Shown here piece after piece: positions 2,189-32,469 of a DNA stretch of 64,000 bases. Below the pieces are notes generated by a model. The model saw only the letters and a program-made list of their open reading frames with translations, did not search any database and had not been told where the DNA came from. Within the stretch, counting starts at the first letter, position 1; each line of letters opens with the position of its first letter. The stretch comes from a virus: IMG/VR virus record IMGVR_UViG_3300037851_000757, positions 714 through 64,713 of that record. The stretch is one strand, 5' to 3'. A program made the position numbers and the translations under genes.

Positions 2189-2211
2189 GCAGTTGATTCG
2201 GTAAATCAACC

Positions 2212-2241: not shown

Positions 2242-2255
2242 AGAACGGAGAGCCT

Positions 2256-3206: not shown

Positions 3207-3470
3207 TTAGAATCTAACAACCCAAACCTCCATCCACCCGGTTTTTTCCGGATCAAAAATGCCCTTCGGCACTTTTGTCCGAAAGATTTCCACAATCTCA
3301 GAAATGCCAAGAGCCTTTTTTGCAAAATTCTCGACATTCTCAGGCTTGGCGCTCGCCTTCATCCGAATGTATAGTTGCCGGTCATTTGCGTCGATGCGTT
3401 GAACCCACTTTTCCATCGTAAACACGCTCCTTGACAATCCCTCTGGTCTTGTCGTAGGTGTATTTTTCAA
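3207..3470 (-). CDS. Hypothetical protein
   Basis: Last ORF of the leftward arm; the true start may be an internal Met. Confidence 0.5.
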   Translation of the reverse strand: MKNTPTTRPEGLSRSVFTMEKWVQRIDANDRQLYIRMKASAKPENVENFAKKALGISEIVEIFRTKVPKGIFDPEKTGWMEVWVVRF

Positions 3471-3639
3471 CTACTGTCCCCTTGCTGTAGACCCTCACCT
3501 TCTCGACTCCCGACGATCCCATTCTATAATATTCCTGTTGAGCCGGCACCTCCCGTTTAACCTTAACTCGAATCGTTTCCGCGTAAAGACCTCCCGAAAC
3601 TCCAATGCTGATTCCCAAAATCAAGAAAAAGATCTTCAT
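3382..3639 (-). CDS. Small exported or membrane-anchored protein
   Basis: Hydrophobic N-terminus MKIFFLILGISIGVSGGLYA; GGAGG SD; start overlaps the upstream stop. Confidence 0.6.
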   Translation of the reverse strand: MKIFFLILGISIGVSGGLYAETIRVKVKREVPAQQEYYRMGSSGVEKVRVYSKGTVVEKYTYDKTRGIVKERVYDGKVGSTHRRK

Positions 3640-4547
3640 AAAACCTCCAGCAATGCCGAATGCTTGTAGAGATTATCGAGAGCCTGTTGTTTCAGACTGT
3701 CTAAAACAACCCCCGATTTACAGGCTTCCCAAATAGACTGTATTCTTTTCCACAGGCCTATCTGAAATCCCTCAGAAATAGTGTTTCGATGAGACGCCAC
3801 TCTTATTACTGGAAACTGTCCTCCTCCCCTACAGCAAAGTTGGTGAACGGTTGTTAGAAATTCAGAGCCGACAGGGGTCCCAAGTATCCAAGAGTAAATG
3901 CTTAGTTGCGTCGCCCATGATTTATCAACATCTTCTAAAGGAAACGAAGAGACCATCAGCCCGTACCTCATTTTGGGCATCACGTCTTTATGGAAGCCCC
4001 GACGCTCGCCAGCATCATAAAGCTCCATGTACCCTTTTCGAGGAGAGGTAGTCTTAGAAGACATATACCCATTGACTTTCCAATCATGAACGATCTTACA
4101 CCCCGCCCGATTCTTGTAAAAAATATCAGGCTTTCCTAAAAGTACGACCCCGGCTTCCTCCTTTGTGTGCGCCACGCGATTCTCGATTTGAAACTCAAAA
4201 CGAGGCGTATCTTCCGCTCCTTGTAAGTCAAGCAAGAGATCTGCCAATGCCCCGGATTTCCGGTAGCACTCAAAAGCCCAGGCTCCATTTTGCATCGCCC
4301 AGTCTCTATTATGGCTCTCTACTTGATTTTCGAAAATCTCAACAAAGTCGAAACCGCGTAAGCTACCAAATAGAGAGCGCGTTAAAAAGCTCTTGACATA
4401 GGCATCAAAAGCAGCTCCAATAGCCATTGCTTGAGTTTGAGGAGTCCGAGGCGGACGAAAATCTGCAAGATACTGTAAATAAAATGCTTCTCGATCATCC
4501 TCCCATAACATAATTGCTGTGGGTGACAGGTAACGAATTTCCTTCAT
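3636..4547 (-). CDS. PD-(D/E)XK nuclease-family exonuclease
   Basis: YLSPTAI...C/D-x-FYLQY-type N-terminus, LLGKPD...IVHDWK catalytic pattern and QLSIY motif. Confidence 0.75.
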   Translation of the reverse strand: MKEIRYLSPTAIMLWEDDREAFYLQYLADFRPPRTPQTQAMAIGAAFDAYVKSFLTRSLFGSLRGFDFVEIFENQVESHNRDWAMQNGAWAFECYRKSGALADLLLDLQGAEDTPRFEFQIENRVAHTKEEAGVVLLGKPDIFYKNRAGCKIVHDWKVNGYMSSKTTSPRKGYMELYDAGERRGFHKDVMPKMRYGLMVSSFPLEDVDKSWATQLSIYSWILGTPVGSEFLTTVHQLCCRGGGQFPVIRVASHRNTISEGFQIGLWKRIQSIWEACKSGVVLDSLKQQALDNLYKHSALLEVL

Positions 4548-4834
4548 TTTATTCTCCTCCGAAGAATTTCAAGTTGTTCCTCCGCTTCCCCTATTCCTTT
4601 CTTTATCTGCTTCTTCAAGATTCCGAGTTCCGACTCTTCAATTTGTCGATTTACAGAATCAAGACGAGCAAGCAGGTTCATAATATGTTGCCAATGAGAC
4701 TTTAGTTCTGCTGCCCCTATATGCCCTTTGCAGATGTAACTCCCAGGCTCCAGATAGATCTCTGCTTCCTCACTTCCACAAAGAGCGCACAAAAAAGAAG
4801 TTTTTAGTTTGTCGATTTTTTGTTCGTTGTCCAT
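4544..4834 (-). CDS. Hypothetical protein with a Cys/His Zn-finger-like segment and a coiled coil
   Basis: CALC...CKGH followed by heptad-rich sequence. Confidence 0.6.
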   Translation of the reverse strand: MDNEQKIDKLKTSFLCALCGSEEAEIYLEPGSYICKGHIGAAELKSHWQHIMNLLARLDSVNRQIEESELGILKKQIKKGIGEAEEQLEILRRRIK

Positions 4835-10891: not shown

Positions 10892-11351
10892 CACCCACAA
10901 GCCAAGCCTCATGCACAAGATCAATTTCTCTTACACTGATTTTAGAAATCTTCGGAGAGCTTGGGTCATAAATAGCCCCAGAAAAATCTAATACTTTAGC
11001 ATGAGACTCATAGATTAGAATTGCTTGGTTTCCAATAAGTCTAACAAAGAACCTCTCTATAGCATACAGTGGGTCATAAATTAATTTTGCATATCTTTGA
11101 TCTTGGCTCGGACTTGAAGCTGGAAACTTCTCAATTGGAAATAAACACTTTCCGTGAAGGATAAAAAGATCTTGGATTTCTTGAATATGAATTCCTCTTA
11201 AATTTTTCGGTGGAGGGAAATCCTTCCACCAGATTTCTTGGCCGTCTGTTTTTAATACAGCTTGTAAAATTCCAATATCAACATCTAAAAGCATTGCTGC
11301 ACAATAAAGAAGACATTGTTGTTTACCTGGAGTTTGAAGTAAGTGTCTCAT
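10836..11351 (-). CDS. Peptidase C39-like (papain-fold) protein
   Basis: Q-x5-QCLLYCAAMLL N-terminal Cys motif and a later H-x3-LD. Confidence 0.5.
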   Translation of the reverse strand: MRHLLQTPGKQQCLLYCAAMLLDVDIGILQAVLKTDGQEIWWKDFPPPKNLRGIHIQEIQDLFILHGKCLFPIEKFPASSPSQDQRYAKLIYDPLYAIERFFVRLIGNQAILIYESHAKVLDFSGAIYDPSSPKISKISVREIDLVHEAWLVGEIKSGQAAFINQIKSEGL

Positions 11352-11832
11352 CTTTTTTCTCCAAAAGGGATTCCGGAATCTCTACGCAGCATTCACCGAT
11401 AGTTTTAAAATCCCCTGAGATTTTGCAAGCAAAAATAATAACTCGTTTTTGCTTCTCTTTAAGTTTCAAAACAAGAGGAATAAAATCACTATCGGCAGAC
11501 CCAAGGACTACCATATCAAGATTTTCTGCTGCTTCAAGAATATCAACAGCTATTTTTACATCATAGTCAGCTTTCTTTATAATCTGCCCATGTTCTGTAA
11601 AAGATTTTGGGGTTTGATATTTTGGTGTAAACCCAATCTGTTTTAACATATGAATAAATCCAGCGGCCTGATTTTTAACTTGTGCTCCATAGGCATTTGC
11701 GATTGCAACATCTCCAAGTCCCTGGATATATTCAAGGTATTTCTTGTAATTTAATTTTCTTCCTTTGTACTTTTTATTAATGCAGTAGTAAAGATTACTG
11801 ACATCAATAAAAACTCCTATTTGCTTTGGCAT
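11323..11832 (-). CDS. NYN-domain (LabA/DUF88, PIN-like) protein
   Basis: VFIDVSNLY, KKADYDVKIAVD, LGSADSDFIPLV. Confidence 0.85.
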   Translation of the reverse strand: MPKQIGVFIDVSNLYYCINKKYKGRKLNYKKYLEYIQGLGDVAIANAYGAQVKNQAAGFIHMLKQIGFTPKYQTPKSFTEHGQIIKKADYDVKIAVDILEAAENLDMVVLGSADSDFIPLVLKLKEKQKRVIIFACKISGDFKTIGECCVEIPESLLEKKDETLTSNSR

Positions 11833-11841
11833 ATGGTCCCC

Positions 11842-12441
11842 TTATAAGTCATCAAAGACAATTGGGATTGTTGTTTTTAATTCTCTTAGAAGTGGAAGCA
11901 TGAGTTCTCTCATTTGTGGATGAGCTGCTTTTGAACATCGTAATTTAAAAATATGCCTCCATTCTCGGAAATTAGCAGTTGTGATAATTTCAGTTTTTAA
12001 GGAATTTGGAAGAACTTCTCTTGCCTGTTCTGGCCTCCATCCTTGAGAAAGTAGTTGCTTATAATAATATTCAGAAAGTTTGCAGGCTTCGTGAAATAGA
12101 TTAAATTGGTCTAAGTTTGATTGTTCTATCCAAACTGGCATAATAAATTCTATTTCTCTTCCTCCGTAATTGACATATCGTGTTGACTCTTGACTGTAAG
12201 AAGCGAGTCGATGACGTACAAGCTCATGAGTAACACCGCGATTTGTAATAAATCTAACAGACAATACCCCATGTTCAATGACACTTTCATGCCCCCTTTT
12301 GATTATTTGACTGACAAATTTTTCAGCAGATGAAAATGTAATCTTTTCTTCTGATTTATAACACGTTCTTCCACATTCCTCAATATATTCAAGGTTTCCA
12401 GAGATTTTCAAAATCTTATAGGACTGTTTAATTAATTTCAT
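11842..12441 (-). CDS. thyX: Flavin-dependent thymidylate synthase
   Basis: GHESVIEH, THELVRHRLASYSQESTRY signature, EQAREVLP, NFREWRH, AHPQMR. Confidence 0.95.
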   Translation of the reverse strand: MKLIKQSYKILKISGNLEYIEECGRTCYKSEEKITFSSAEKFVSQIIKRGHESVIEHGVLSVRFITNRGVTHELVRHRLASYSQESTRYVNYGGREIEFIMPVWIEQSNLDQFNLFHEACKLSEYYYKQLLSQGWRPEQAREVLPNSLKTEIITTANFREWRHIFKLRCSKAAHPQMRELMLPLLRELKTTIPIVFDDL

Positions 12442-12734
12442 TCTTCTACCTCATAAGTGTCAGAAAGAGAGTTTTCTTTTTTAACTTTATCATATGCAAG
12501 TTGGGCATAGTGAGCAACTTTAATCAAGTCTCTTAGAGATTCTGCTGGTCCTCTTGCATTCGACCCGAATCTGTTGATATATCTTTTTATATTTTGGACA
12601 CAATCATGCGATGTAAAATGTTCTACTTGATCATTCCCATCAGGATTTTGATACTGGGGAATCGTATAGACTTCAATATGCTTTAAAACTTTTTTTGAAA
12701 AGATTCCCCAATCTTTTATACGATCAATAGCCAT
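12438..12734 (-). CDS. DUF3310/T7 gp1.7-like protein (possible nucleotide kinase)
   Basis: NIKRYINRFG...DLIKVAHY pattern, next to thyX. Confidence 0.5.
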   Translation of the reverse strand: MAIDRIKDWGIFSKKVLKHIEVYTIPQYQNPDGNDQVEHFTSHDCVQNIKRYINRFGSNARGPAESLRDLIKVAHYAQLAYDKVKKENSLSDTYEVEE

Positions 12735-12743
12735 AATTACCTC

Positions 12744-13094
12744 CTATCTATAGACACCTGTATATTGCCACCAGTTGTGTCTGGTAAATAATTTTTTATA
12801 TTCTTCTTCTGTGGCACCAACAAGAACCCAGACTCCTGAACCATTGGCACACAATAATGGAAAAGTTTCATGTTGAGCTGGAGTAAAAGGATCACCAGAT
12901 CTTTTAGGATCTTTTACTTCAACCCATCTATGTCCATAGCGTGCGTGAGTACAAAAAAGATCTGGAAATCCTGACTGATACATATTTCCATGTGTTGCTT
13001 TAACAAACCAGCCACGATACCGTAAAAAAGTAATAATAGCTTCTTGTATTCCTTTCTCTGGTCCATGTTTCTTTCGAGGAATAAAAGGTTTCAT
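12744..13094 (-). CDS. VRR-NUC family nuclease (probable junction resolvase)
   Basis: PEKGIQEAI...GFPDLF...WVEVK...TPAQ. GAGG precedes ATG 13094. Confidence 0.8.
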   Translation of the reverse strand: MKPFIPRKKHGPEKGIQEAIITFLRYRGWFVKATHGNMYQSGFPDLFCTHARYGHRWVEVKDPKRSGDPFTPAQHETFPLLCANGSGVWVLVGATEEEYKKLFTRHNWWQYTGVYR

Positions 13095-13095
13095 A

Positions 13096-13356
13096 TTATT
13101 CCTCGGCAAGAACAGATAAGACAAGACACTGAATTGCCCTTATCATGAGCTTTTCATATTCTTCACGCTGCGTCGTCGCTACCCGAATTGCCCGACATTC
13201 CTGGATGTACTCCATCGCTCTCATCTCCAGATAGTTCTTGTCTGCTATCTTTACGAGCACGTTCAGGTTTCCCGGCTCTCTCGGATTGAACTGGGCTTGC
13301 GACAGGATTTTGCGGATGCTCTTTATACTTGGAAATGAACTCTTTTTCGAACTCAT
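13096..13356 (-). CDS. Hypothetical protein overlapping the upstream gene
   Basis: GGAGAGGAG precedes ATG 13356 (MSSKK); ends just before the VRR-NUC start. Confidence 0.55.
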   Translation of the reverse strand: MSSKKSSFPSIKSIRKILSQAQFNPREPGNLNVLVKIADKNYLEMRAMEYIQECRAIRVATTQREEYEKLMIRAIQCLVLSVLAEE

Positions 13357-13513
13357 TGATTTGCTCCTCTCCAATATTAAGTTTTGACTCCAAGTGAAAA
13401 ACACGAAGAACAATATTTTTCAGGACTCCTTGCATTTCGAGAAGGGATTTAGCAAGTTCCTTTTGAGACATTGAAATTTGATTCATTTTCCAAATAATTT
13501 GGCTTTCTTTCAT
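13163..13513 (-). CDS. Hypothetical protein (coiled-coil N-terminus)
   Basis: Start is coupled to the upstream stop (TAATG). Confidence 0.5.
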   Translation of the reverse strand: MKESQIIWKMNQISMSQKELAKSLLEMQGVLKNIVLRVFHLESKLNIGEEQINEFEKEFISKYKEHPQNPVASPVQSERAGKPERARKDSRQELSGDESDGVHPGMSGNSGSDDAA

Positions 13514-14244
13514 TACTCTTTTTCCTTTCTCATTTTTTGTACCAGATTTCTAACAATTGTTTTCTTAAAAAGATCTGGTCGCTTTGCTACCATGACAGTT
13601 TTACGCAATTTTTGAAGAGCTTCTGTTAAAAGAATTGTTTCTCTATGATCTCCAAAATCATTCCAAGAGCGATATCGTTCCCATAGTTCATCACTTAAAA
13701 GGCTCTTAATTGCTTTGGCTGCTCGATATTCATTGTTGTAAATTTGCTCTATCCAATTAAAAGACTCATGTATTAGGCTCTTGTCTAATTCTTCAGCTTC
13801 TTCGTGAATATATAAATAATCTTCAGGGATTCCAGCTTCAGTTAATATTGGTAACATAAGTTGAATCAATTTTTTCATCTCTGGAATTAAAGCTTTTCGA
13901 GAAATCGACGTATGAGTTGTAGGATTTTCTTTAGCTTGTCTAAGGGCTAAAAGAAGCTCCATTTTTGAAAGTCTTGAATAATTAAGAACATAATACTTTC
14001 TTCCCATTTCCCTAAGTTGGACAGTTGTAAGGTCCCCTAATTCAAGAAAAGGATGATTTCGATACCAGTTTATAACTTCTTCTTTATTTTTTTGTTCAAC
14101 AAAGTTAAGAAGTTTTTCTTGTTGTGGCTCATCTGATAATATCCATAAGTTTTCAAAACTTGGACGCCCTATAATATATTCAATATTTCGGAGTGTTTTA
14201 ATCTTTTCATGAAGACGGGATCGAAGTTTTAACAATCTATCCAT
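13513..14244 (-). CDS. Protein containing a Rho N-terminal-like (HeH) domain
   Basis: LTTVQLREMGRKYYVLNYSRLSKMELLLAL matches the Rho_N pattern; GGAGG SD. Confidence 0.6.
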   Translation of the reverse strand: MDRLLKLRSRLHEKIKTLRNIEYIIGRPSFENLWILSDEPQQEKLLNFVEQKNKEEVINWYRNHPFLELGDLTTVQLREMGRKYYVLNYSRLSKMELLLALRQAKENPTTHTSISRKALIPEMKKLIQLMLPILTEAGIPEDYLYIHEEAEELDKSLIHESFNWIEQIYNNEYRAAKAIKSLLSDELWERYRSWNDFGDHRETILLTEALQKLRKTVMVAKRPDLFKKTIVRNLVQKMRKEKE

Positions 14245-14253
14245 TTGACCTCC

Positions 14254-16593
14254 CTATTTCTTTGATGCCCATGAATCTAAATGTGTTTTCCAATCCATTT
14301 TAATTAGAGGAACCTTTTCTTTAAAAGACTCTACTGTTTCTTTAACAGTTCGAGCAACTATTGGTACATATTCAGGATGTGTTGGAGAAAGAATTTCATC
14401 ATGGACATTCATAGGTTGAACCCTCCAATGATTTATTCCACATGGCTGAATGTCCCAAATTTTTCTTTGAACTTTTTTAGTAATTTCGGCACCTGAAGAT
14501 TGAATAACATGATTTGCAGCAGCACGCATATTGGCTGCTTGTTGTGCAAAAGCGGCCGCAAATAAAGCAGATCTAAGAGCACCAGAAGCAGTTTGTTCTC
14601 TATCTCTTCTGATCACTTTGATCGCCATTTTAAGCCAGCTTCTTGGCGGATCATTTGCAAGATCAAAAAGAGCTTTAACGATTTGGTTTTCTAAAGTAAA
14701 ATAACGTCTGAATCCAAACAGGGATTCAATATATTCAGAAGGTTCATGCCATTCCACTTTTGTTCCAATACCGCCAGGTTGTCGCATTGAACAGAACATA
14801 TCAAATATCTTTTTTCGTTCTCTTCCCCACACGATATATCTCGCACACCACCTTCGGTATGCTTCTTCAGCAGTTTTTTCAGGAATCCCAACTCTATTAG
14901 ACAGTGTGTAGGCTTCACCTCCGTAAAGGAGAGCGAAGACTCCATTTTTTGAGCGCCCATAAAAATCTTCGTAAAAATTAGCGGCTCCATCTGATTTCAA
15001 AATCTCCTCATAGGTTTTATCTGGAAAGAGATAAACGCCAAAAAGAGCATGAATCTTTTTACCAGACATTAAGTCGGATCTAAGATCCGGGTCAGCATAA
15101 GCAGCATCGGCAAGGCATACTTCAAAACCAGAAAAATCACCACCGCATAAAACAGTGTTCTCCAATGCAAGAGGGAAACATTTTCTAACATAGTTCGATT
15201 TTTTGATTCCCTGTGGATTGAGTCCGCCAGTACCTGCCATGCGAGAGCTGCGAGTACCGATAACAACAAAGTCAGCATGGAATCTCCCTGCAAGAAGAAG
15301 TTTGTCATAGACTTCTATTTCCTTTTTGGCTTTTCGAGCTTTAATGATTTCAGCAGCACGCTCGGCAGCCGGATGAGGGTCTTTTCCAGGAATAAGACCA
15401 TCATCGCAAGAATTGCACCCCATGCCAGAACAAGCACTACAAACCTCAGATACACGCCATTGGGCAATTTCTTCAAGAATAATTCCTTTTGTTGTGATTT
15501 TCCCATCAACACTCATTACAACTTTTTCTGCTTCTGATAAAACTTCTTCCAAATAAGCTCGGACCACAGCGTGGGAATTATAATTGAATTTTCGTCTTGT
15601 TCCTTCTTCTTTTGCAATCGCTTTTTGACGAAGTTCGACAATGGCTTCGGTGTCAATTCTAAAGCCACGCCAGCGCACAGCCCCAACCATGCAAGTAAGA
15701 ACAGAGTCATCATCATCTGGTTCTGGAGAACCGAAAAAATGATATAACCCGCGAGTATCAGCCACATCATCATAAGCATATTCTCTTGCAAGACTATTGT
15801 ACGACCAATAGTTAACGTGCTGCTGGATTCTAAACGGCCAAGAATATTCCCACATTCCACGGATTTCAGAATCAGAGCTATTTAAAAATACTTTAGCAAA
15901 TGGGGCATACCCAAGCTCTGCCGGGGATGCTTTAGCTGGAAGAGAAATATCAGTATAAAGAAGTCGGTCATCTTTTGCTACCCCAGTATCTATAGCTAAG
16001 GCTTTTAAAGCTGAACTTGGAGAAAATTTTAAAACAAGATCCTTGAATCCTGGAATCATTGCTCCAACATCATCTTTAAGATCAAATACTTGCCATCTTA
16101 TTGTTTTATCTTCTCTTCGAGCAAAATAAATATCCTTTAATGGAATTCTTTTATTTAATTCTGCACAAAGCTGCCAAGCAAGAACGGTAGGAACTTTTTT
16201 GATACGGATATCTTCTCTATCCATTGTTGATTGATATGGGCCTTTGCGTGCGTGCATCATAATGTCAAAGGCTTTTACTGGCTTTAAACATAATCCGTCT
16301 CTTGCATATGGCTCCGCATTGTAGTATTCTTCAATGCAATCAATAGGATGTTTATTTTTATCTTTTAAAAGAGAAAGAGTTGTATAAAGTTGACAAAGAT
16401 GAAAATGATCAAAACTTAGATTAAATCCACAGACTCCTCCATCATGTAGCATAAATTCTTCAATAAGTTCAAGAGTTTCTTGTACGGGCCTGTTCCATGG
16501 AGAATAAAGATTAATGGGGCCTTCATCAAAAGCATATTGAATAAGAACTATCGGCCCGTGAAATCCACAAGTTTCTGTATCATAAAAAATCAT
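14254..16593 (-). CDS. polA: Family A DNA polymerase with a 3'-5' exonuclease domain
   Basis: DTET (ExoI), GFNLSFD (ExoII), YAYDD (ExoIII), TRSSRM, DFSGFE (motif A), KNGVFALLYG (motif B), VHDE (motif C). Confidence 0.93.
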   Translation of the reverse strand: MIFYDTETCGFHGPIVLIQYAFDEGPINLYSPWNRPVQETLELIEEFMLHDGGVCGFNLSFDHFHLCQLYTTLSLLKDKNKHPIDCIEEYYNAEPYARDGLCLKPVKAFDIMMHARKGPYQSTMDREDIRIKKVPTVLAWQLCAELNKRIPLKDIYFARREDKTIRWQVFDLKDDVGAMIPGFKDLVLKFSPSSALKALAIDTGVAKDDRLLYTDISLPAKASPAELGYAPFAKVFLNSSDSEIRGMWEYSWPFRIQQHVNYWSYNSLAREYAYDDVADTRGLYHFFGSPEPDDDDSVLTCMVGAVRWRGFRIDTEAIVELRQKAIAKEEGTRRKFNYNSHAVVRAYLEEVLSEAEKVVMSVDGKITTKGIILEEIAQWRVSEVCSACSGMGCNSCDDGLIPGKDPHPAAERAAEIIKARKAKKEIEVYDKLLLAGRFHADFVVIGTRSSRMAGTGGLNPQGIKKSNYVRKCFPLALENTVLCGGDFSGFEVCLADAAYADPDLRSDLMSGKKIHALFGVYLFPDKTYEEILKSDGAANFYEDFYGRSKNGVFALLYGGEAYTLSNRVGIPEKTAEEAYRRWCARYIVWGRERKKIFDMFCSMRQPGGIGTKVEWHEPSEYIESLFGFRRYFTLENQIVKALFDLANDPPRSWLKMAIKVIRRDREQTASGALRSALFAAAFAQQAANMRAAANHVIQSSGAEITKKVQRKIWDIQPCGINHWRVQPMNVHDEILSPTHPEYVPIVARTVKETVESFKEKVPLIKMDWKTHLDSWASKK

Positions 16594-17444
16594 TCGGTCT
16601 GTCCATCTAAAGTAAATGGGATATATTCAAGATTGTTTTCTTTTGCAAAAGCTTCCAGAGAAAGAACTAAGTCTCCGGTGCTAATTTCACCAGCACACCA
16701 GGACATTGTTCGAGTATGAAGACCATTTCCGATTCCAGAATCTTGAATATGAGCCATCATATTAAAGATCTCAGAGCGTTTCCGTTGTCTCTTTTCTCTC
16801 ATTACTTCTTGTTTTGTCCGGTTGATTTTAATATCACCAGTTCTTGCTTTTCCTTCTTTTAGTTCTTTTATAGCAGAAAAAATTTGAGTAACATCACCAG
16901 TTCTGTTGTAGATTGTATAAAGATCTCGAATGTTCTGTTGAGTAAAAAATCCAGCAGCTGCTTCAAGATGAACTTCTTTTGGAAGACTTAACAACATAAA
17001 ACGAACTTGAACCCATCCTCTTGACATCCCAAGAACAGAAGCAGTATCCATCTCATTAAGACCGAGATCTTTCATTCTCTTGATTGCCAATGCTTCTTGG
17101 TAAATGTTGAGATTTTGCCTTTGAATATTCTCGGCCAGATTGATTTTTAGAGCATCAACTTCACTCAAAATCGGTTTTATTACAGCAAAAATATATTTTT
17201 CTTCATTGACACGATGAGCCATCAAACGACGAAAACCAGCAGCAAGCCGGTATTTTTTTCCAGTCTCCATTTGTTTGGCATCATCGTAAAGGGCAACTAC
17301 AACAGGCTGATGAAGCCCATTTACTTTGATGTCATTTGCAAGATCGATAACATCAATTGGAGTAATCTTCCCACGGCAGTTAAAATTTTCATCATCATGG
17401 ATTTCTGAAATCAAAATTCTTTCTACATTCATTTTGTGATCCAT
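16590..17444 (-). CDS. parB: ParB/RepB/Spo0J-family protein 2 (ParB-N plus HTH)
   Basis: LANDIKVNGLHQPVVV, AAGFRRL, ENIQRQNLNIYQEA, HTH TASVLGMSRGWV. Confidence 0.88.
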   Translation of the reverse strand: MDHKMNVERILISEIHDDENFNCRGKITPIDVIDLANDIKVNGLHQPVVVALYDDAKQMETGKKYRLAAGFRRLMAHRVNEEKYIFAVIKPILSEVDALKINLAENIQRQNLNIYQEALAIKRMKDLGLNEMDTASVLGMSRGWVQVRFMLLSLPKEVHLEAAAGFFTQQNIRDLYTIYNRTGDVTQIFSAIKELKEGKARTGDIKINRTKQEVMREKRQRKRSEIFNMMAHIQDSGIGNGLHTRTMSWCAGEISTGDLVLSLEAFAKENNLEYIPFTLDGQTE

Positions 17445-17605
17445 TGTCTTTGCTCCTCCTCAAATGAATAAAGTAAGGTGATTGTTACATCTGTACTTTT
17501 ATACTCATCCAAAACAACTTGAAGCTCGCCAATAGTCAAAGGACCGATTGCATGAATCTCAAAGAGAGAGTGAGGATGAACAATTATAACATATTTTTCA
17601 CCCAT
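17429..17605 (-). CDS. Small hypothetical protein (58 aa, not in the track)
   Basis: MGEKYVIIVHPH...QWITK fills the gap and overlaps both neighbours. Confidence 0.45.
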   Translation of the reverse strand: MGEKYVIIVHPHSLFEIHAIGPLTIGELQVVLDEYKSTDVTITLLYSFEEEQRQWITK

Positions 17606-19607
17606 TTATATTCTCCTCATATTTTTTCTCAAGAACTGATAGTTCAGCTTGGAACTCTCCAAGAGAAACTGATTGAAGTTCTTTTTTCAGTTTCAAATTA
17701 TTATAGACATATTCATCAGAAGGCAAGAGAAAAAGATCTTTAATTATTAGCCCTCTATTAGAATCCATACCGATTCGATGAGCACGATCCTCTGACTGCA
17801 TTCGTGCTTCTCCTTTAAAGCTATTTGAAAAGAAAAATTCAATAGGAGAAGCAGTTAAGGTTAAAGCCATTCCTCCAGCTTCTGGATTTCCTACAAAACA
17901 AACTCTCGGATAGGTTTCTCGTAATTCTTCTGCTTTAGGATGCGTTCGATCCATTGCTGATAAAAGTTCATCAGAATCAGCAAGTTCTCCGGAAGGAAGT
18001 TTTGCTAAATAGCCTCTTCCATCAACTCTAAGAACTGCCCATCCTTGTTGCAGAGCGATTCGAACTAATCTATCCAAAGTTCCAGTAAAGCCACCCCATA
18101 CGATAAACCGCCCAATATCTTCAGCAGCATCCAATTCTTCAATAAATACTTCATCTTTTGGTGTCCCAATCTCATATGTAACTGTCTCATAAACAGGTTC
18201 CGTTCCTTTTCCGCCGCAAGTAGGGCATTCAATAATTTGTGTTTTTATTTCCGATAAAGAATCCTTAATGTCTGTTGTAACTTGTTCATAATGATTTATA
18301 GAATCGTTTTCAAAAGGAGCTTCAATAGTCTTTTTTCCAGCACATAAACGACAAGTCTGTTCTCCTTTCTCTTGTTGTTTGTATTGGAATCCATCAGCAA
18401 GTTCTCTCAATAATGTCAATGCCTCAATCGCTCTTGTTGCCATTTTTTTAATTAATTTTGCTGCTTGTAACATCTCTACTGACGGTTTGGCTCTTATAAT
18501 TTCATATTGTTTATCTGGCAAATCTAAACAGTCTTTTTTAAAGAAAACAACAACAAGTCCCTTTGTCCTTTCTCGAAGAAGAGCAACTTCATTTATTGAT
18601 TCTTTAAATGCATGAGCGGCGGCTGCTTGTTTGGGGTCTACATCAAAAACCCCGCCTAATTCAGTATGAATAGGGTCATTTCTATATTGGCCACAGATAG
18701 AACATTTTTCTGGGTCGTTAAGCCATGTTACAAGATGAGGATAAACTCCTCCAGTAATTAGGCTCTCTCGTTGTTCAATTATACAAAGTCGTTTTTTAAA
18801 AGCAGCAATACTTCCTTCTTTTAGGAAGCCAGGGCAAGCTACTTCACATTGATGCCACCAATCAGTTGGATCTTTTGGAGCAGGCGATCCGGACATTTCG
18901 ACAATATAACCATCTCTTCCGTACTTTTCTCTGATATTGTTGGCAAGATGCAAAGCTGCCTGAGATCGTTGAGCGTTTGGACTTTTGATTTTTGAGGATT
19001 CATCAAAACAGACAATCTTTGGAACTGGTCTGATGTCAGTCCAGTTTTTAAGCTCTCTAACAAGTCCTTCGTAGGTGAACATTCGCGGTCTGATTTGAGC
19101 ATCCCATTTAAGAAGCTCTCTTCCGACTGCTTTGACACCTGCTCTTGGACCAATGTACCACGCTTCTTCATTTGATACCGCGAATCCCGTTTTTTTGGCA
19201 TAGTCGAGAACCTCAATAAAGGAAAGAGTTTTACCTGTTCCCATCTCAGCAGCCCAAATTCCATGATGAACTGTTAAAAGATGAGAAGTCATATGTTTTT
19301 GATGATCATAAAGAGTACGATTAGTTTCAAAAGAAATAAATTCTTGCTCATAGGGTTCATATGTATTTATCCCCATGAGATAATGCAAATTGAACCAATT
19401 TCTATGGCTATTTTTGATTGACCAAATCTTTCTGGGATTAACTTCATCATAACCATGCCACTTTGCCCCTTCCATATTTCTGATTTCATCAAGCAGAATT
19501 TTATTATAGGCAAATTGGCACTCAATTTTTGACGGAGTTATCCGGAGTTTGATTACTTTCCAAAAATTCCCCGCTCGGACTTTTATCTCTTCGATTTTTT
19601 CGCTCAC
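17598..19607 (-). CDS. SNF2-like superfamily 2 helicase with Zn-finger insertions
   Basis: YDHQ, EMGTGKT, FDESSKIK, SGSPAP, GGMALTL, QSEDRAHRIG. Confidence 0.88.
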   Translation of the reverse strand: MSEKIEEIKVRAGNFWKVIKLRITPSKIECQFAYNKILLDEIRNMEGAKWHGYDEVNPRKIWSIKNSHRNWFNLHYLMGINTYEPYEQEFISFETNRTLYDHQKHMTSHLLTVHHGIWAAEMGTGKTLSFIEVLDYAKKTGFAVSNEEAWYIGPRAGVKAVGRELLKWDAQIRPRMFTYEGLVRELKNWTDIRPVPKIVCFDESSKIKSPNAQRSQAALHLANNIREKYGRDGYIVEMSGSPAPKDPTDWWHQCEVACPGFLKEGSIAAFKKRLCIIEQRESLITGGVYPHLVTWLNDPEKCSICGQYRNDPIHTELGGVFDVDPKQAAAAHAFKESINEVALLRERTKGLVVVFFKKDCLDLPDKQYEIIRAKPSVEMLQAAKLIKKMATRAIEALTLLRELADGFQYKQQEKGEQTCRLCAGKKTIEAPFENDSINHYEQVTTDIKDSLSEIKTQIIECPTCGGKGTEPVYETVTYEIGTPKDEVFIEELDAAEDIGRFIVWGGFTGTLDRLVRIALQQGWAVLRVDGRGYLAKLPSGELADSDELLSAMDRTHPKAEELRETYPRVCFVGNPEAGGMALTLTASPIEFFFSNSFKGEARMQSEDRAHRIGMDSNRGLIIKDLFLLPSDEYVYNNLKLKKELQSVSLGEFQAELSVLEKKYEENING

Positions 19608-19616
19608 GCTTTTCTC

Positions 19617-19859
19617 CTAACAATCAAGCACTATATGGCAATTTTCTTCATACTGAGAACACTGTTGTCTTTCAGGGTCTCCTTGTGAAACAGGATCTCC
19701 TTCTCTCCGAATCGTCCAGCCAGAATTAATTCCAGTAGGGTTCACTCGATTTGCGAAATCCATAACCTGTTCATCGGTATCAGTTTTGGGAACACAAACC
19801 TGTATAGAAAAAACTCCTTGTATTATCACTTCTCTATTCATATCGCCCCCAATAAGCAA
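19617..19859 (-). CDS. Small Cys-containing hypothetical protein
   Basis: Operon packing; the start is probably the second Met. Confidence 0.6.
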   Translation of the reverse strand: MLIGGDMNREVIIQGVFSIQVCVPKTDTDEQVMDFANRVNPTGINSGWTIRREGDPVSQGDPERQQCSQYEENCHIVLDC

Positions 19860-20292
19860 TCATTTTTTCTTGCTTCTCTGTATCTTTTAACTCCACTGGC
19901 CACCAATATGGTGCAGAAACATCAATATCAGTCCAATTAAATTTTTTATAATAATCCGGGAGTTTCCGCATCAAATTGCATTTATGTGATTTATGCAATC
20001 GTTCATCCCCTAACCAGGGTGGAAAAAATATTTTGATTGGAACTTCATAAAATAACATATCATTATCAAAACCTCGGGACACCCATTCATGAATAATACA
20101 ATTTGTATAGTATTTTAAACAGTCCTCCCATCCCTGCCACATCCTTACTACAACATGATTGTGCCAACGATTTTGAGGATTTTTTAAAGCATTTAAAATT
20201 TGCATTGATTCTACACGCTGTTTTCCTAATCGTCTATAATCTAAGATAGTAGCACACTTTTCGAAGTCTGGGTCTGGTAAAAAAGTTTGCAT
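19834..20292 (-). CDS. denV: Pyrimidine-dimer DNA glycosylase (DenV-like)
   Basis: MQTFLP...LDYRRLGKQRVE..QIL, H..V.MW, PPWLG, HKSHKCNL.RK. Confidence 0.8.
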   Translation of the reverse strand: MQTFLPDPDFEKCATILDYRRLGKQRVESMQILNALKNPQNRWHNHVVVRMWQGWEDCLKYYTNCIIHEWVSRGFDNDMLFYEVPIKIFFPPWLGDERLHKSHKCNLMRKLPDYYKKFNWTDIDVSAPYWWPVELKDTEKQEKMIAYWGRYE

Positions 20293-20295
20293 TAT

Positions 20296-20523
20296 TTATC
20301 TTTCTATTTTCCTTTTACAACAGGGGCAAATATCTGTTTGGGTTGTTATTCTCTTCTTGTTGAAAGTGCAGAAATGCCCTGGATCATCGTCATACCAGTC
20401 CCTAAGTAGGAGATTTTCCTCTTCAAGAAAACGCAAATAATCCATCTCTTCGTCTGAGAGGATGTATTTTTCAAAATCTTCTTCTGTGAATTTACTACGG
20501 GGGAGCTTAATAAGTTCTTTCAT
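20296..20523 (-). CDS. Small hypothetical protein
   Basis: Operon packing; HFC...CPCC. Confidence 0.55.
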   Translation of the reverse strand: MKELIKLPRSKFTEEDFEKYILSDEEMDYLRFLEEENLLLRDWYDDDPGHFCTFNKKRITTQTDICPCCKRKIER

Positions 20524-27420: not shown

Positions 27421-28304
27421 CTGATTTGATGAATCTTTTTAATGACCTTGATAGACAGACTTCTGAAAAAGATCCAAAAGATAGAATTTTACGTGCTCCT
27501 TTTGGGTATCCTGGTGGTAAAACAAGAAGCCTTGCAAATATTATAAAACATCTTCCATACAAACCTATTTATGTAGAACCTTTTGGAGGATCTGCCTCTC
27601 TTTTATTGGCTCGACAACCTGTAAAATTAGAGGTTTTCAATGATCGGTATGCTGGAGTTGTTGCTTTTTATCGTTGTCTTCGGCATCCGGAAAAATATAA
27701 ACAGCTTATAGATTATTTGGAACTTACCGTCCATTCGCGGGAAGATTTTATTGATGCAAAACAAACTTGGTGTGATGAATCTGATGATGTGATTCGGGCC
27801 GCTAAGTGGTATTATATGATTAGCTATAGTTTTGGGTCACTCGGTAGAAATTTTGGGCGTTCAATAAGTATGAATGGAGTCTTAGCCGGAAAAATTACTA
27901 ATAAATTAAAATATTTTCCACTTATTCATAGTCGTTTACAAAAAGTTCAAATTGAAAATCAAGATTGGAAGGATTGCCTCCATGATTACGATTCTAAAGA
28001 TACTGTATTCTATATTGACCCTCCTTATATTGATGCCTATCCTGGTACTTATGAAATTGAACTTAATAAAAAATCCCACATCGATCTCATTGGTACGATC
28101 TTTCATCTTAAGGGATTTGTGGCCTTAAGCGGATACAGTAATCCTATTTATGAAAATCGAGACTGGGATGCTCGATACGCTTGGGATTCTTTTGTTAGTA
28201 TAGATCCTTGTGCATTTACCGAAACAAATTACAAAGAAAATTTAAAATGTTCTGTTAAAAGACAAAAGGCAGAGGAGATTTTATGGATCAAAGAAGTCCA
28301 TTAA
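27417..28304 (+). CDS. dam: DNA adenine methyltransferase (Dam/D12 class)
   Basis: YPGGK, YVEPFGGSAS, FND, FYIDPPY. Target specificity is not established. Confidence 0.9.
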   Translation: MTDLMNLFNDLDRQTSEKDPKDRILRAPFGYPGGKTRSLANIIKHLPYKPIYVEPFGGSASLLLARQPVKLEVFNDRYAGVVAFYRCLRHPEKYKQLIDYLELTVHSREDFIDAKQTWCDESDDVIRAAKWYYMISYSFGSLGRNFGRSISMNGVLAGKITNKLKYFPLIHSRLQKVQIENQDWKDCLHDYDSKDTVFYIDPPYIDAYPGTYEIELNKKSHIDLIGTIFHLKGFVALSGYSNPIYENRDWDARYAWDSFVSIDPCAFTETNYKENLKCSVKRQKAEEILWIKEVH

Positions 28305-28861
28305 GTCTATCAGACTATGAATGGGCAGCGTCTGAATTAGGCTGTCAACGAGAAGTTATACAAGCTGTTGCTCAAGTAGAATCAATAAAAGATGGGTTCT
28401 TTCCTAATGGCCATCCCAAGATTCTTTTTGAAGGACATATTTTTCACAAATATACTAAAGGTTACTTTGATTTGTCCTATCCGACTCTTTCTTTTCGATC
28501 TTGGACACGAAAATATTATGGCAAAACTTGGAAGATTGAACTATCAAGATTTAATACCGCTCAAATTCTAAATCGTCCAGCAGCTATTTATGCTTCTTCT
28601 TGGGGAAAATTTCAAATAATGGGCTTTAACTGGGGCTGCACCGGATCTAAAAGCGAAGAAGATTTTGTGCGGAACATGAAGGTGAATGAACAAGAACACT
28701 TAAAAGCATTTGTTAGTCTTCTTAAAAGCTGGAAACTTAATCCAGTCTTAGCGTCTTGTGATTGGAGGAGATTTGCAAAAGTCTATAATGGAGCGGGCTA
28801 TGAAGCAAACAACTATCATAAAAAACTTGAAACCGCCTATGAAACGTTGCTCAATTATTGA
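28283..28861 (+). CDS. N-acetylmuramidase-family endolysin (DUF3380-like)
   Basis: AVAQVES..GF...PKILFEGHIF, ASSWGKFQIMGFN, FAKVYNG.GY..NNYHKKL. Confidence 0.9.
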   Translation: MDQRSPLSLSDYEWAASELGCQREVIQAVAQVESIKDGFFPNGHPKILFEGHIFHKYTKGYFDLSYPTLSFRSWTRKYYGKTWKIELSRFNTAQILNRPAAIYASSWGKFQIMGFNWGCTGSKSEEDFVRNMKVNEQEHLKAFVSLLKSWKLNPVLASCDWRRFAKVYNGAGYEANNYHKKLETAYETLLNY

Positions 28862-28973
28862 TCTTCAGGAGTATAAGAAACAACATATTGAGCGGCTAAA
28901 ACAAAAATGTCGGAAGAGTCTTTCTGAAGCTCTTTTACAAGTTTCTGAAAAATCTTCTGCATGGGAGGACTAA
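28839..28973 (+). CDS. Small hypothetical protein
   Basis: 3' part of track ORF 28758..28973; bridges the endolysin and exonuclease. Confidence 0.35.
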   Translation: MKRCSIIDLQEYKKQHIERLKQKCRKSLSEALLQVSEKSSAWED

Positions 28974-29602
28974 TGGCAAGATCTATGCAGCATTGGAATG
29001 GGCATCTTCTTTGTGCAATTGATACTGAAACGTCTGGTCTTGACCCTTTTTGGCATGAGATTTTGCAAATCTGTATTTTGCCACTTGACTCAAATATAGA
29101 ACCTCTTCAAGATCATTTGCCTTTTTATATTAATCTTATCCCAGAGCATCCTGAACGAGTTTCCCAAGAAGCTCTTAATAAAAATGGATTGGATATGGCC
29201 GAATTGACTTTAAAGGGAATAGATAAGGTCAAGGCTATAGATCTCTTTGAAGACTGGATAAAGCAGTTAAAACTCCCGACAACAAAATATGGAACCCCAA
29301 AACAACTAATGCCACTTGGTCATAACTACAGTTTTGATCGAGCCTTTATTATTTCTTGGCTTGGGAATGATCTCTACAATCAATATTTTAATTATCATCA
29401 TCATGATACGATGATAGCTGCTCACTATTTAAACGATCGAGCTGCTTTCCATGCTGAAAAAGTTCCTTTTAGCAAGACAAACCTTCAATGGCTTTGCACC
29501 ACATTAAATATAAAATCGGAAAGAGCACATACAGCTCTTTCCGATTGTGTCTCAACTGCTCAGGTCTATAAGAAATTACTCGCTCGCGGCTTGATTGCAT
29601 GA
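28961..29602 (+). CDS. DEDDh 3'-5' exonuclease
   Basis: IDTETSGL, GHNYSFD, DT, HTALSD. Confidence 0.9.
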   Translation: MGGLMARSMQHWNGHLLCAIDTETSGLDPFWHEILQICILPLDSNIEPLQDHLPFYINLIPEHPERVSQEALNKNGLDMAELTLKGIDKVKAIDLFEDWIKQLKLPTTKYGTPKQLMPLGHNYSFDRAFIISWLGNDLYNQYFNYHHHDTMIAAHYLNDRAAFHAEKVPFSKTNLQWLCTTLNIKSERAHTALSDCVSTAQVYKKLLARGLIA

Positions 29603-29830
29603 TGCACAAACTATCTGAGTGACCTCTTTATCGAACAGACTACATTCTATAATAGTTTCTATTTTACCGCAAGAGAGCTGCTCAGATGTTAAAAATCGAT
29701 AAGAGCATTCTGGAATAACAGGATGGGCCAGATACTTATTTTTAAAATCTAAAACATACCCAGGCGGAGGTTCTGGATTCCCGCGCATAGGTGCAAAGCA
29801 GTCACCGTTTGGAAGCTTCCGCCATAGCAT
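29576..29830 (-). CDS. Small Cys-rich protein, last gene of the late arm
   Basis: C..R, CG, EC, CASC; convergent with the exonuclease. Confidence 0.65.
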   Translation of the reverse strand: MLWRKLPNGDCFAPMRGNPEPPPGYVLDFKNKYLAHPVIPECSYRFLTSEQLSCGKIETIIECSLFDKEVTQIVCASCNQAASE

Positions 29831-30101
29831 CTTTGTGTCTCCTTACAAGACGATCTTTTCTAAGTCTTACAATTTCATTAATTTGACCATTTGTTAATCT
29901 TTCTTCAAGTTCTTTAATTCCTATTGAATTTGCCCCTTCACAGATTTCTGTAATCTTGTGTAAAAGAACATCATCAAGCTTTGTTGGGGTCAATTTTACA
30001 ATGGCTTTTGCGGCTCCAAGACCAGAACCACCTCCAAGAAGAAAGACAATACACCCTGTTAAAAATTGATGCTTATCTATCCAATCTAAAAGAAAATCCA
30101 T
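29802..30101 (-). CDS. Holin-like membrane protein
   Basis: N-terminal TM segment, then IVKLTPTKLDD seen in small holins, and a basic C-terminus. Confidence 0.5.
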   Translation of the reverse strand: MDFLLDWIDKHQFLTGCIVFLLGGGSGLGAAKAIVKLTPTKLDDVLLHKITEICEGANSIGIKELEERLTNGQINEIVRLRKDRLVRRHKDAMAEASKR

Positions 30102-30110
30102 AGTCTCTCC

Positions 30111-30434
30111 TTAGATTTTATGGCATCTATTACAGTCAACAGTTTTTTCAGCGTGTTTTTTGTGATATTTTGTTTGCCATAAAATAAAAACTTTTTTAGT
30201 TGACCCTGAATGACAACTTCCGCAACTATCAAATGCATTTTCACGATTAGGAGTTTTAATTGGTACTTGATCTATCCAACATTTAGGACAAAGTGAGTCC
30301 CATAATGGTGTAAATTCATTTTGAAAACAACGTAACTTACCGGCTTCTTCAATACAAGGGATGAATCCACTTTGAAGAGCTGCAACTGAGGAAGCAAAGA
30401 AAATTAAGATGGGAATAATAATAATTTTTTTCAC
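30111..30434 (-). CDS. Exported di-heme c-type cytochrome
   Basis: Sec-type signal MKKIIIIPILIFFASSVAA; CGSCH and CNRCH; extra His pair YHKKH; additional CPKCW; GGAG plus GTG start. Confidence 0.75.
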   Translation of the reverse strand: MKKIIIIPILIFFASSVAALQSGFIPCIEEAGKLRCFQNEFTPLWDSLCPKCWIDQVPIKTPNRENAFDSCGSCHSGSTKKVFILWQTKYHKKHAEKTVDCNRCHKI

Positions 30435-30444
30435 TTTAGTCTCC

Positions 30445-30885
30445 TTATTTTATCCAAGGTAAAACTTTTGTTCTGTCTTCCTGAATTTGATATTTTAAAT
30501 AGCATCTATCTTTTAGAGAAATTGGTGTAGAAATTGTCTGGAACTTTATTAAATCATCACCAATTATAATAACTTCAGGTCCGAGATTTTCTTGTATAAA
30601 TTTAATTTTGGGCAAAAGATAATTAGCGAGTTCTTGATAAGTTCCAGATGTATCAATAATCTTTTCAGCCCCATCAAGAAACTTTGAAATTTCTTTTTTC
30701 CCAATATTTTCAAGTTTGCTGATTTCATAAATCGATAATTTAATAATTGTGTTAGTTGTTTGTAGATTTGGGAAAAATTGTTCAATATAACTTCCATCGG
30801 GGAATTCTTTACAAATGCTAACAGGTTTTGTTGGAGCTATACATCCAACAATAATTACTAAAAAAAGAAGAAGATATAATTTCAT
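30445..30885 (-). CDS. Lipoprotein
   Basis: MKLYLLLFLVIIVG-C lipobox-like signal; AGGAG SD. Confidence 0.7.
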   Translation of the reverse strand: MKLYLLLFLVIIVGCIAPTKPVSICKEFPDGSYIEQFFPNLQTTNTIIKLSIYEISKLENIGKKEISKFLDGAEKIIDTSGTYQELANYLLPKIKFIQENLGPEVIIIGDDLIKFQTISTPISLKDRCYLKYQIQEDRTKVLPWIK

Positions 30886-30894
30886 GATAGGCTC

Positions 30895-31659
30895 CTATTC
30901 AATTATAACATTAGAAGGATTACTCATTCTTGTTTGAATTAACCAGGGTTGGACTGCTGCATGAGTTTTGCTTGTCCCATAAATAGACTCTTTCAGAACT
31001 CCATCAATTTTTCCTACTGCCTTAACTTCAAAACGAACAGAGTCTTCTTCAGAAAGAATTTTAATAGGAATTTCTTTTTGAGCAGTTTCCCCTTGAAAAA
31101 TTACAGTAGAAGTTTTTTCTTTGACTCCTCGAAACTTGAAAGAAGGTTCTGTTACATTACTTTGTTCCCAATTCCAAGCGAATGTTATAAGTTCTCCAAT
31201 CTTCTTTTTATATAAAAGAATCTCAAGTGGGGTCAATGAAAGCTCATTAGTTAAAAGAAACATATCAACTTTAGTGTTTGATTCCCGTCCTGAAATTGTA
31301 AGGGTATGCTCTCCCTCCGGAAGGTCAAACTCACTGTCATTAAAACGATCCCAAGCAAAAGTTCCACGAGTTCCAACTGGTGTCATCCAGACATATTTTG
31401 TGCCAGTATTCATTGTTACAAAAACAGAGTTTTCTGCGTCAGAGGCTCTTTCGAATCGTCCCCAAAGGGCATACTTTCCAGCAGTTTTTATATTGATTTT
31501 AAAAATCGCAGTACCGGCATTTGAAGCAGTAGCCCAAATAAAAGAATCGCCAGCGGAGAACCCAGTAAGCTGAGCAGATTCAGCCTCAAAGTAAATCTGC
31601 TCAGCTTTACACGTTCCCCCAAATGCCAACAGCGCAAGAAGGAGAATTAGTTTTTTCAT
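30895..31659 (-). CDS. Exported protein with a CBM6/CBM35-like jelly-roll and an Fn3-like domain
   Basis: Signal peptide; FEAES; YALWGR; LPEGEHTLTISGRE.NTKVDMFLLT; C-terminal FAWNW...FEVKAV. Confidence 0.65.
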   Translation of the reverse strand: MKKLILLLALLAFGGTCKAEQIYFEAESAQLTGFSAGDSFIWATASNAGTAIFKINIKTAGKYALWGRFERASDAENSVFVTMNTGTKYVWMTPVGTRGTFAWDRFNDSEFDLPEGEHTLTISGRESNTKVDMFLLTNELSLTPLEILLYKKKIGELITFAWNWEQSNVTEPSFKFRGVKEKTSTVIFQGETAQKEIPIKILSEEDSVRFEVKAVGKIDGVLKESIYGTSKTHAAVQPWLIQTRMSNPSNVIIE

Positions 31660-32060
31660 TGGACAATTACCTCAATAATGACATCAAAAGGAAGCCCAAC
31701 ATTTGAAAATGGAATAACAAATTCAAGATAATCAAGTCCTGTAACAGTTTTTCCCTGAACACGATCTGTCATGTTCCCATTTTTTGAGACAGCCGCAATT
31801 GAAAAATATCTTTTGACTGTTTCTCCAGGCGTCCCCGTTACTGTAACTTGTTTTGAAACTGTAAGAGAAGTTTGTCCAGTGTATGGAACAACTTCTATTT
31901 TCGTGGGGGTAACAGTCGGGGAATCTGCCATGTAAAGAACCCACTCTTTTAGATTCACCAAATCTTCTGTGGGCTGTTTCCAAGACATTTTGACTGTTTC
32001 AGCAAAAACGACAGATGCCATGAGACAAAGAACCAGACTAATTAGACAGCTTTTTTTCAT
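31656..32060 (-). CDS. Exported Fn3/Ig-like protein
   Basis: Signal MKKSCLISLVLCLMASVVFA; MSWKQP...YFSIAAVSKNGN. Confidence 0.65.
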   Translation of the reverse strand: MKKSCLISLVLCLMASVVFAETVKMSWKQPTEDLVNLKEWVLYMADSPTVTPTKIEVVPYTGQTSLTVSKQVTVTGTPGETVKRYFSIAAVSKNGNMTDRVQGKTVTGLDYLEFVIPFSNVGLPFDVIIEVIVQ

Positions 32061-32469
32061 TTACTCCTCCATTGAGTTTGTGGAGTGTCTCCACTTTGTT
32101 TTCAAGCCGCTCCAAACGAGCGTCTTGTCGTTGATTCTCACGATCAATAAGACCGCCAAAAAGTTTTAAATTTTCATTTGTATGGGTTAGTTGCGTTTGG
32201 ACAATTTGGACACTTCCAATAAGTTGTGTAACCTGATTAGAAAGTGCTCCCATTTCTCCTTTCATTGTCCAAAGAAACATTAGTAAAAGAATACATAGTC
32301 CCCCCAGGCCACTGATTATAAGATAAAATGTCAAGGTTGTCGGCCTTGCTTTTACCCCGCTCCAGATGTCGTCTAATTTCGCATCAACGGGCTTACAAAT
32401 TGTTTCACAGGCCATTGGGGGTGTCGTCCTCCTTTCGTGGTGTCTTCTGTTTGCATCCTCGCCTTCCAT
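32038..32469 (-). CDS. Single-TM coiled-coil membrane protein (i-spanin- or holin-like topology)
   Basis: TM FYLIISGLGGLCILLLMFLW followed by a long heptad region. Confidence 0.6.
   Translation of the reverse strand: MEGEDANRRHHERRTTPPMACETICKPVDAKLDDIWSGVKARPTTLTFYLIISGLGGLCILLLMFLWTMKGEMGALSNQVTQLIGSVQIVQTQLTHTNENLKLFGGLIDRENQRQDARLERLENKVETLHKLNGGVNEKKLSN

Follow-up and report, generated by a model that had tools for sequence, protein, structure and literature searches.

A phage-borne family of small exported proteins with the signature of two-heme c-type cytochromes

What would a bacteriophage do with a cytochrome of its own? The question is raised by one gene in a 64,000-nucleotide stretch of DNA (hereafter the window), which takes in almost the whole of an IMG/VR virus record (IMGVR_UViG_3300037851_000757; 64,750 bases, with direct repeats at its termini). 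The gene lies at 30111..30434 on the minus strand, with its GTG start at 30434-30432 and its TAA stop at 30113-30111, and encodes a protein of 107 residues, P0001, which an earlier note on the same DNA had described as an exported, phage-encoded, di-heme c-type cytochrome. The attribution to a phage stands: besides P0001, the window encodes a gpA-type large terminase, a P22-like coat protein, a 1222-residue tape-measure protein and a family A DNA polymerase, as well as ThyX, a Dam-type methylase, a muramidase endolysin and other phage functions. From the residues described below, P0001 probably binds two hemes. The fuller reading that we favor, at about an even chance, is that P0001 is a cytochrome of phages and not of cells, a small periplasmic c-type protein with two hemes that acts as a low-potential carrier or store of electrons.

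The case for heme lies in the C-terminal part of the protein. Residues 58-107 (30114..30263, minus strand) form a short Pro-rich linker and a basic module with the motifs C71xxC74H75, H91xxH94 and C101xxC104H105, and the two predicted heme sites fall within approximately 46-50 residues, or about 23-25 residues per heme, a packing like that of the c3/c7 class (about 25-30). The eight residues C71, C74, H75, H91, H94, C101, C104 and H105 are invariant across all homologues, which upholds the earlier description of two CxxCH motifs accompanied by a spare pair of histidines. Homologues keep Cys, Cys and His at both sites, with a Cx4CH spacing at the first site of one protein (P0006). P0001 as a whole contains exactly 8 Cys and 4 His, and its mature part has no Met; the family has only four invariant His, and mature proteins lack Met in five of six cases. 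With four invariant His for two hemes and no Met, both hemes, if bound, would therefore have bis-His ligation. Two CxxCH motifs arose in 35 of 200,000 shuffles of the mature P0001 sequence. Among the 246 open reading frames of at least 50 residues in the six frames of the whole window, for which approximately 0.24 motifs would be expected in total, that of P0001 is the sole one to carry CxxCH.

The protein is also predicted to reach the compartment in which such hemes are attached. Residues 1-19 (30378..30434, minus strand) read as a signal peptide, with two lysines ahead of a hydrophobic core of 16 residues (mean Kyte-Doolittle value 2.7) and a predicted signal-peptidase I cut after V-A-A and before L, in agreement with the earlier note. 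The small-x-small site, with small residues at positions -1 and -3, is shared by all homologues and, judged by sequence rules, signal peptides with such a cleavage site are present in 6/6 family proteins examined. The mature protein would have 88 residues: an acidic N-terminal part of about 37, the Pro-rich linker and the basic module of about 46.

P0001 has few relatives. Among 5.8 billion proteins searched through a word index, and 1.84 billion cluster representatives searched exhaustively with HMMER, only six were recovered (P0002 to P0007, 35-71% identity), giving a family of seven proteins. All relatives are encoded on phage-like contigs from freshwater or groundwater metagenomes. The cluster representatives yielded one weak cellular match (P0009, E 8e-4), a multiheme protein that was rejected as a family member for want of the HxxH pair, and P0008 (1167 residues) proved to be a spurious relative, a translated tandem repeat. 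A tblastn search of 50,697 GenBank phage records, taken to E 1, gave no match, PHROGs has no family for P0001, and a scan of the genomes of 185,579 prokaryote species, sensitive to close relatives only, gave neither a close relative nor a prophage copy.

What the family resembles is consistent from one search to the next. All of its sub-threshold Pfam and NCBIfam matches are to multiheme cytochrome families: in Pfam, Cytochrom_c3_2 for five of six members (best E 4e-5), CIII, C7, NrfB-like and MtrC-like, and in NCBIfam c7, HmcA, NrfH, NrfB and DmsE. The top ten matches in an Atlas feature search are multiheme cytochromes as well. Searching the PDB with the single P0001 sequence found nothing. 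A profile of the heme module, searched against the same database, matched cytochrome c7 best (3h4n, residues 15-33), with the same H-x2-H-x6-C-x2-C-H spacing, and nearly all of its 27 weak matches were c-type cytochromes. The earlier statement that the spacing of the spare histidines and the following heme site occurs in small multiheme cytochromes is borne out by this identity with c7.

Three groups of cellular cytochromes offer a closer comparison. Like the triheme c7 proteins of the PpcA family of Geobacter, to which 3h4n belongs, P0001 is by its sequence small, basic, periplasmic and bis-His, with about 24 residues per heme, and its segment T-x2-H-K-K-H-A-x5-C-x2-C-H lines up with c7 15-33 position by position. 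In c7, the two histidines of the HxxH motif cap two different hemes. Unlike c7, P0001 would have two hemes rather than three, its first heme site precedes the HxxH pair instead of following it, and it has an extra N-terminal domain with predicted disulfides, is carried by phages and has no cellular orthologues. The module also aligns with the center of the tetraheme cytochrome c3 of sulfate reducers (PF02085/PF14537; 1gyo), over a stretch that runs from one heme site through a spacer and a His to the heme site that follows. Cytochrome c3 is bis-His throughout, as is predicted for P0001, and the Cx4CH variant seen at the first site of one homologue occurs in some c3-type hemes; P0001 differs in having half the hemes and scores below the gathering thresholds, and its apo model gave no informative fold match. 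Small diheme cytochromes (DHC of Rhodobacter, 2fwt/2fw5; Shewanella 3u99; NapB) share with P0001 two c-type hemes, predicted in its case, a periplasmic location and a mass of about 10-15 kDa. The PDB matches to this group (E 0.66-1.5) cover the surroundings of one CxxCH only, there is no Pfam NapB match at E<=1, and these proteins are cellular, with defined enzyme partners.

In front of the module lies an acidic mini-domain (residues 20-57; 30264..30377, minus strand) that carries C27, C36 and C49-P-K-C52, with C27 and C36 at the ends of a predicted hairpin. It is the best-conserved part of the protein among the four closest homologues and is without a match in the PDB or the Atlas. P0006 lacks the His-less CPxC pair, and P0007, whose N-terminal domain is replaced and joined through a polyproline linker to a retained heme module, has none of the four N-terminal Cys; the heme module is therefore the constant element of the family. 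Since the Cys pairs are lost separately in these two proteins, the N-terminal cysteines appear to form two independent disulfides, C27-C36 and C49-C52, and a four-Cys metal center was rejected on the same grounds. The earlier note had correctly listed a third CxxC without His; as a third heme site it was rejected, having been lost in two homologues. Kinship of the CPKC motif to CcmH is unsupported, with no Pfam match at E<=1 and no CcmH among PDB matches at E<=10. P0006 (L014, 659-1012) is unusual in several respects, combining Cx4CH at its first heme site and the loss of the CPxC pair with an 8-residue insert before the HxxH pair.

The reading frame could in principle be an artefact, either a non-coding stretch, a chimeric assembly or host contamination. 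The source is a metagenome record, rated 70% complete by CheckV although terminal repeats are present. To set against this, a 1496-base contig of an independent freshwater sample (run X2) is identical to 29562-31057 and spans both junctions of the cytochrome gene without differences, so that the junctions are not an artefact of assembly, and the chimera that the earlier note had allowed for is not found. Ribosome-binding sites are coupled to the gene on either side, and its GC content (33%) is near that of the phage (39%). Synonymous sites among family members are saturated and pN is 0.2-0.5, a pattern that shows purifying selection on the gene, and this selection acts on the protein in six phage types. 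An artefact was thus tested and rejected, its remaining probability being negligible.

The family has six unrelated gene neighborhoods, none of which shares a neighbor with another. In the window the gene belongs to a late operon. Elsewhere it is found in a replication module, between DnaB, SNF2, DUF4326 and primase genes (L001-L003), where a P0002-type homologue of 110 residues adjoins DUF4326; 4.6 kb past an amidase gene and just before the gene for a 4290-residue ART-PolyVal protein, with large family-less proteins around it, in a 64.9-kb genome rated complete (L004-L006, L034); approximately 1.8 kb before a terminase gene, amid a lipoprotein, a 69-residue membrane protein with two segments and a secreted Fn3-like protein (L010, L011); 22 nt past an M15/VanY endolysin gene in a record of 201 kb that also has genes for sheath and baseplate (L012, L013, L028); and on a short contig of small genes (L014). 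Contig GC content ranges from 29% to 60% across the family and that of the cytochrome gene tracks it; the phage carrying P0003 (L004, 64.9 kb) has 60% GC and the 201-kb record carrying P0007 has 29%. GC that follows the contig, saturated synonymous sites with low pN and the unrelated contexts together point to a selected gene that, by these sequence criteria, is old in each lineage and has moved between very different phages. The gene is single-copy in each of four phage records that carry it.

How might such a protein work? We propose that P0001 would be exported through Sec and cleaved after residue 19, and that the host would attach one heme to each CxxCH with its System I (Ccm) or System II (Ccs) machinery. 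H75 and H105 would be the proximal ligands and, by analogy with c7, H91 would cap the heme at C101/C104 and H94 the heme at C71/C74, a cross-capping by which all four His would be used. The product would hold two closely packed, low-spin, low-potential bis-His hemes, with C27-C36 and C49-C52 closed as two separate disulfides. As a soluble carrier or store it could join the periplasmic redox network of the infected cell, docked to a partner by its conserved N-terminal domain, and respiratory electron flow would be kept up or redirected during virion production. That electron transfer in host respiration is the job of P0001 is a tentative assignment, to which we give somewhat less than an even chance.

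A number of results weigh against the favored reading. Every curated cut-off was missed: P0001 scored 22.3 against 25 bits for PF14537, 16.7 against 120 bits for the c7 equivalog NF043011, 17.4 against 22.9 bits for PF02085 and 16.1 against 24.8 bits for PF14522 (Cytochrome_C7). By sequence, P0001 resembles a cut-down cytochrome of the c7/c3 type and is a member of no curated family, because none of these cut-offs is reached. The full-length AlphaFold model is poor (pLDDT 55.6). Modeled alone and without hemes, the module gives four short helices at pLDDT 79.3 and no informative PDB match (Foldseek, none at E<=0.001; VIA-align, best Z 2.7); the fold searches were probably uninformative because the model lacks hemes. 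Metabolic helper genes normally have close cellular homologues and this family has none, so that a host-derived auxiliary metabolic gene, recognized by such a homologue, is not what was found, and a job specific to phages, not necessarily respiration, is suggested. The expression module varies by phage, being late here and replicative in L001-L003, and timing gives no clue to function. No partner gene accompanies the cytochrome across contexts in the comparison of the window with the compared parts of the relatives' contigs. RNA evidence for the gene was looked for and none was found. The host, finally, is not predictable from the endolysin, whose relatives scatter over Gammaproteobacteria and Bacteroidota at no more than 46% identity, and the presence of a maturation system in it is an assumption.

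Several of these points also bear on what else P0001 might be. If the CxxCH motifs were coincidental, P0001 would be a secreted Cys/His-rich disulfide or zinc protein, which would suit the unreached cytochrome cut-offs, the absent structural match and the four further Cys that surely do not bind heme. We consider this very unlikely, given that every homologue keeps the His directly following the second Cys of each site while the His-less CxxC is dispensable, that the HxxH-x6-CxxCH spacing equals that of cytochrome c7, that the weak matches are all cytochromes, that two CxxCH motifs are rare in shuffled sequences and that export is predicted to the compartment of heme attachment. The hemes might instead be real and not respiratory, with P0001 serving in takeover or exclusion as a sink for heme or for the maturation machinery, a block to superinfection or a redox-active shield against reactive species. 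Exclusion and lysis are the tasks of most phage-encoded periplasmic proteins known, and a role of this kind would be in keeping with a phage-only protein that is mobile among phages whose GC content differs widely and whose hosts probably differ too; the well-conserved N-terminal domain suggests, in addition, binding to a conserved target. A mere sink, however, would not need four invariant His at c7-like spacing, P0007 swaps the N-terminal domain yet keeps the heme module, and the literature search gave no precedent. Takeover or exclusion therefore seems to us a rather doubtful explanation.

The earlier note had suggested a redox sensor that times lysis. In its present form, the proposal would make P0001 a heme-based regulator that modulates a holin, a spanin or the endolysin according to the redox or energy state it senses in the envelope, as a redox-gated analogue of the T4 antiholin RI. 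RI is likewise small (about 100 residues), phage-specific, exported and in some genomes encoded near lysis genes; the analogy is functional only, since RI works without a cofactor and has no sequence relation to P0001. An endolysin gene is adjacent or near in two or three of the six cytochrome contexts: at 22 nt in the 201-kb record and, in the window, at 1.25 kb, where the muramidase gene (28283..28861, plus strand; PF11860 E 6.5e-51, PHROG endolysin E 8e-55) converges on the cytochrome gene. Here the latter is also coupled to a gene for a single-pass membrane protein and lies within an envelope-targeted run, in L010 it sits amid the lipoprotein, membrane and secreted-protein genes described above, and the absence of cellular homologues would fit a phage-specific job. 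This lends the lysis-timing idea weak support and no more, for the replication module of L001-L003 is a setting of another kind, the L004 gene is 4.6 kb from the amidase among large family-less proteins, and no membrane or lysis gene is conserved as a neighbor. Proximity is weak evidence in any case, lysis cassettes being a common landing site for accessory genes, and the predicted topology of the adjacent membrane protein (29802-30101) leaves almost no periplasmic part to bind. On balance a lysis regulator is unlikely. A broader proposal is that phages evolved a mini-cytochrome class of their own, made up of a docking domain and a two-heme module, to sense or short-circuit periplasmic redox, for example by gating lysis or lysis inhibition by respiratory status; we regard this as a speculative idea with only a small chance of being right.

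For the favored reading, in which P0001 carries or stores electrons in the periplasm, the host has to supply heme attachment. No CcsA/CcmC/CcmF-type gene is present in any of the four phage records that carry the cytochrome gene, which therefore require a cytochrome-maturing host, as the earlier note had proposed; the window open reading frames scanned included no further gene for heme, tetrapyrroles or respiration. The same note had also implied a host with peptidoglycan, with which the muramidase endolysin fits. No cultured relative of the phage was found (terminase identity at most 26%) and no tRNAs were found in the window.

Cytochrome genes on phages are not without precedent. A phage-borne soxD has been reported from metagenomes (bioRxiv 10.1101/2020.08.24.253096), a NapC/NirT multiheme cytochrome of amoC jumbo phages groups with the homologues of predicted hosts (10.64898/2026.06.18.733297), and ccm and cbb genes figure in a survey of a river virome (PMC13547368). 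The earlier remark that no phage example has been characterised holds insofar as our search of the literature on phage or viral cytochrome c, diheme cytochromes and viral c3 found no biochemically characterised example and no study of a comparable family, and has to be qualified by the soxD and NapC/NirT reports. Like P0001, these are c-type cytochrome genes on aquatic phage genomes for which maturation by the host is assumed. They are presented, however, as counterparts of cellular pathway genes, and what has been reported of c-type cytochromes on phages to date is confined to metagenomic copies of host pathway genes, whereas the P0001 family has no close cellular homologue or pathway partner and is mobile among unrelated phages. 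Its novelty lies in being a family without a cellular counterpart, selected across phages of disparate base composition and dependent on host heme attachment. If P0001 does bind heme, phages would own a periplasmic redox protein, which would provide a very small model cytochrome (10 kDa, two-heme) and a marker of cytochrome c maturation in the hosts of these phages. Redox-gated lysis, if true, would be the first cofactor-based regulation of the phage lytic switch, and a mini-cytochrome class of the phages' own would be the first respiratory protein that is phage-specific and not copied from a host.

Within the window, the cytochrome gene is the third from the end of a long minus-strand late operon and follows tail genes and the envelope-targeted run. 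Its ribosome-binding site, AAGGAG at 30441..30446 (minus strand), lies 6 nt 5' of the GTG, as expected from the clean Shine-Dalgarno sequence noted earlier, and overlaps the TAA of the upstream lipoprotein gene. At the other end, the TAA of the cytochrome gene overlaps a TAAGGAGAG site and the next gene starts 9 nt on. The layout is the same at both junctions (30435-30447 and 30102-30113), where the upstream TAA opens a TAAGGAG ribosome-binding site. Overlapping stop codons and ribosome-binding sites at both junctions suggest that the three genes are tightly coupled in translation. No promoter or terminator of its own was seen flanking the cytochrome gene, and for this reason a reading of the gene as a 'moron' cassette was dropped.

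Immediately upstream, the coupled gene at 30445..30885 (minus strand) encodes a predicted lipoprotein of 146 residues, with a signal ending in I-V-G-C and no family match in Pfam, PHROGs or NCBIfam searches. It is part of the envelope-targeted run at 30445-32469 (minus strand), which comprises a membrane and coiled-coil protein, two secreted proteins and the lipoprotein; the membrane and coiled-coil protein has weak Rz-like PHROG matches (E about 0.01-0.03). The mix of envelope proteins beside the cytochrome gene in the unrelated phage L010 (1015-2353) resembles that of this run. The secreted Fn3-like protein of L010 is 28% identical to the product of window 31656-32060 (pairwise E 0.002), and the lipoproteins that adjoin the cytochrome gene in the two phages have no demonstrable relation.

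Downstream, the gene at 29802..30101 (minus strand) encodes a protein of 99 residues with one N-terminal membrane segment (residues 13-31) and a charged tail, predicted to have its N-terminus out and its tail in. Although the earlier note had called it holin-like, no holin family was matched, and its matches were to PHROGs of unknown function only (E about 5e-4). The last gene of the late operon (29576-29830, minus strand) overlaps the preceding gene by 29 nt and encodes 84 residues with six Cys, including a C-terminal CxxC; the protein has neither a signal peptide nor a family match. Two genes past the cytochrome, the operon ends at a terminator-like hairpin (29514..29546, minus strand) with a 13-bp stem and a T-rich tail, which falls within the 3' end of a converging exonuclease gene (28961-29602, plus strand).

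Other features were noted in the phages that carry the family. Besides the cytochrome, the window and the compared parts of the relatives' contigs have a single protein in common, a pyrimidine-dimer DNA glycosylase (Pfam Pyr_excise); the window copy (19834-20292) is 54.6% identical to that of a phage with a P0002-type protein (L002, 288-788). In L012, a 795-residue PAS, histidine-kinase and response-regulator hybrid is encoded at 15527-16411, approximately 7 kb downstream of the P0007 gene. In L004, the cytochrome region is flanked by genes for two giant ART-PolyVal proteins, one of 1337 residues (547-4560) and the other, the 4290-residue protein mentioned above, with a RadC domain (11146-20330).

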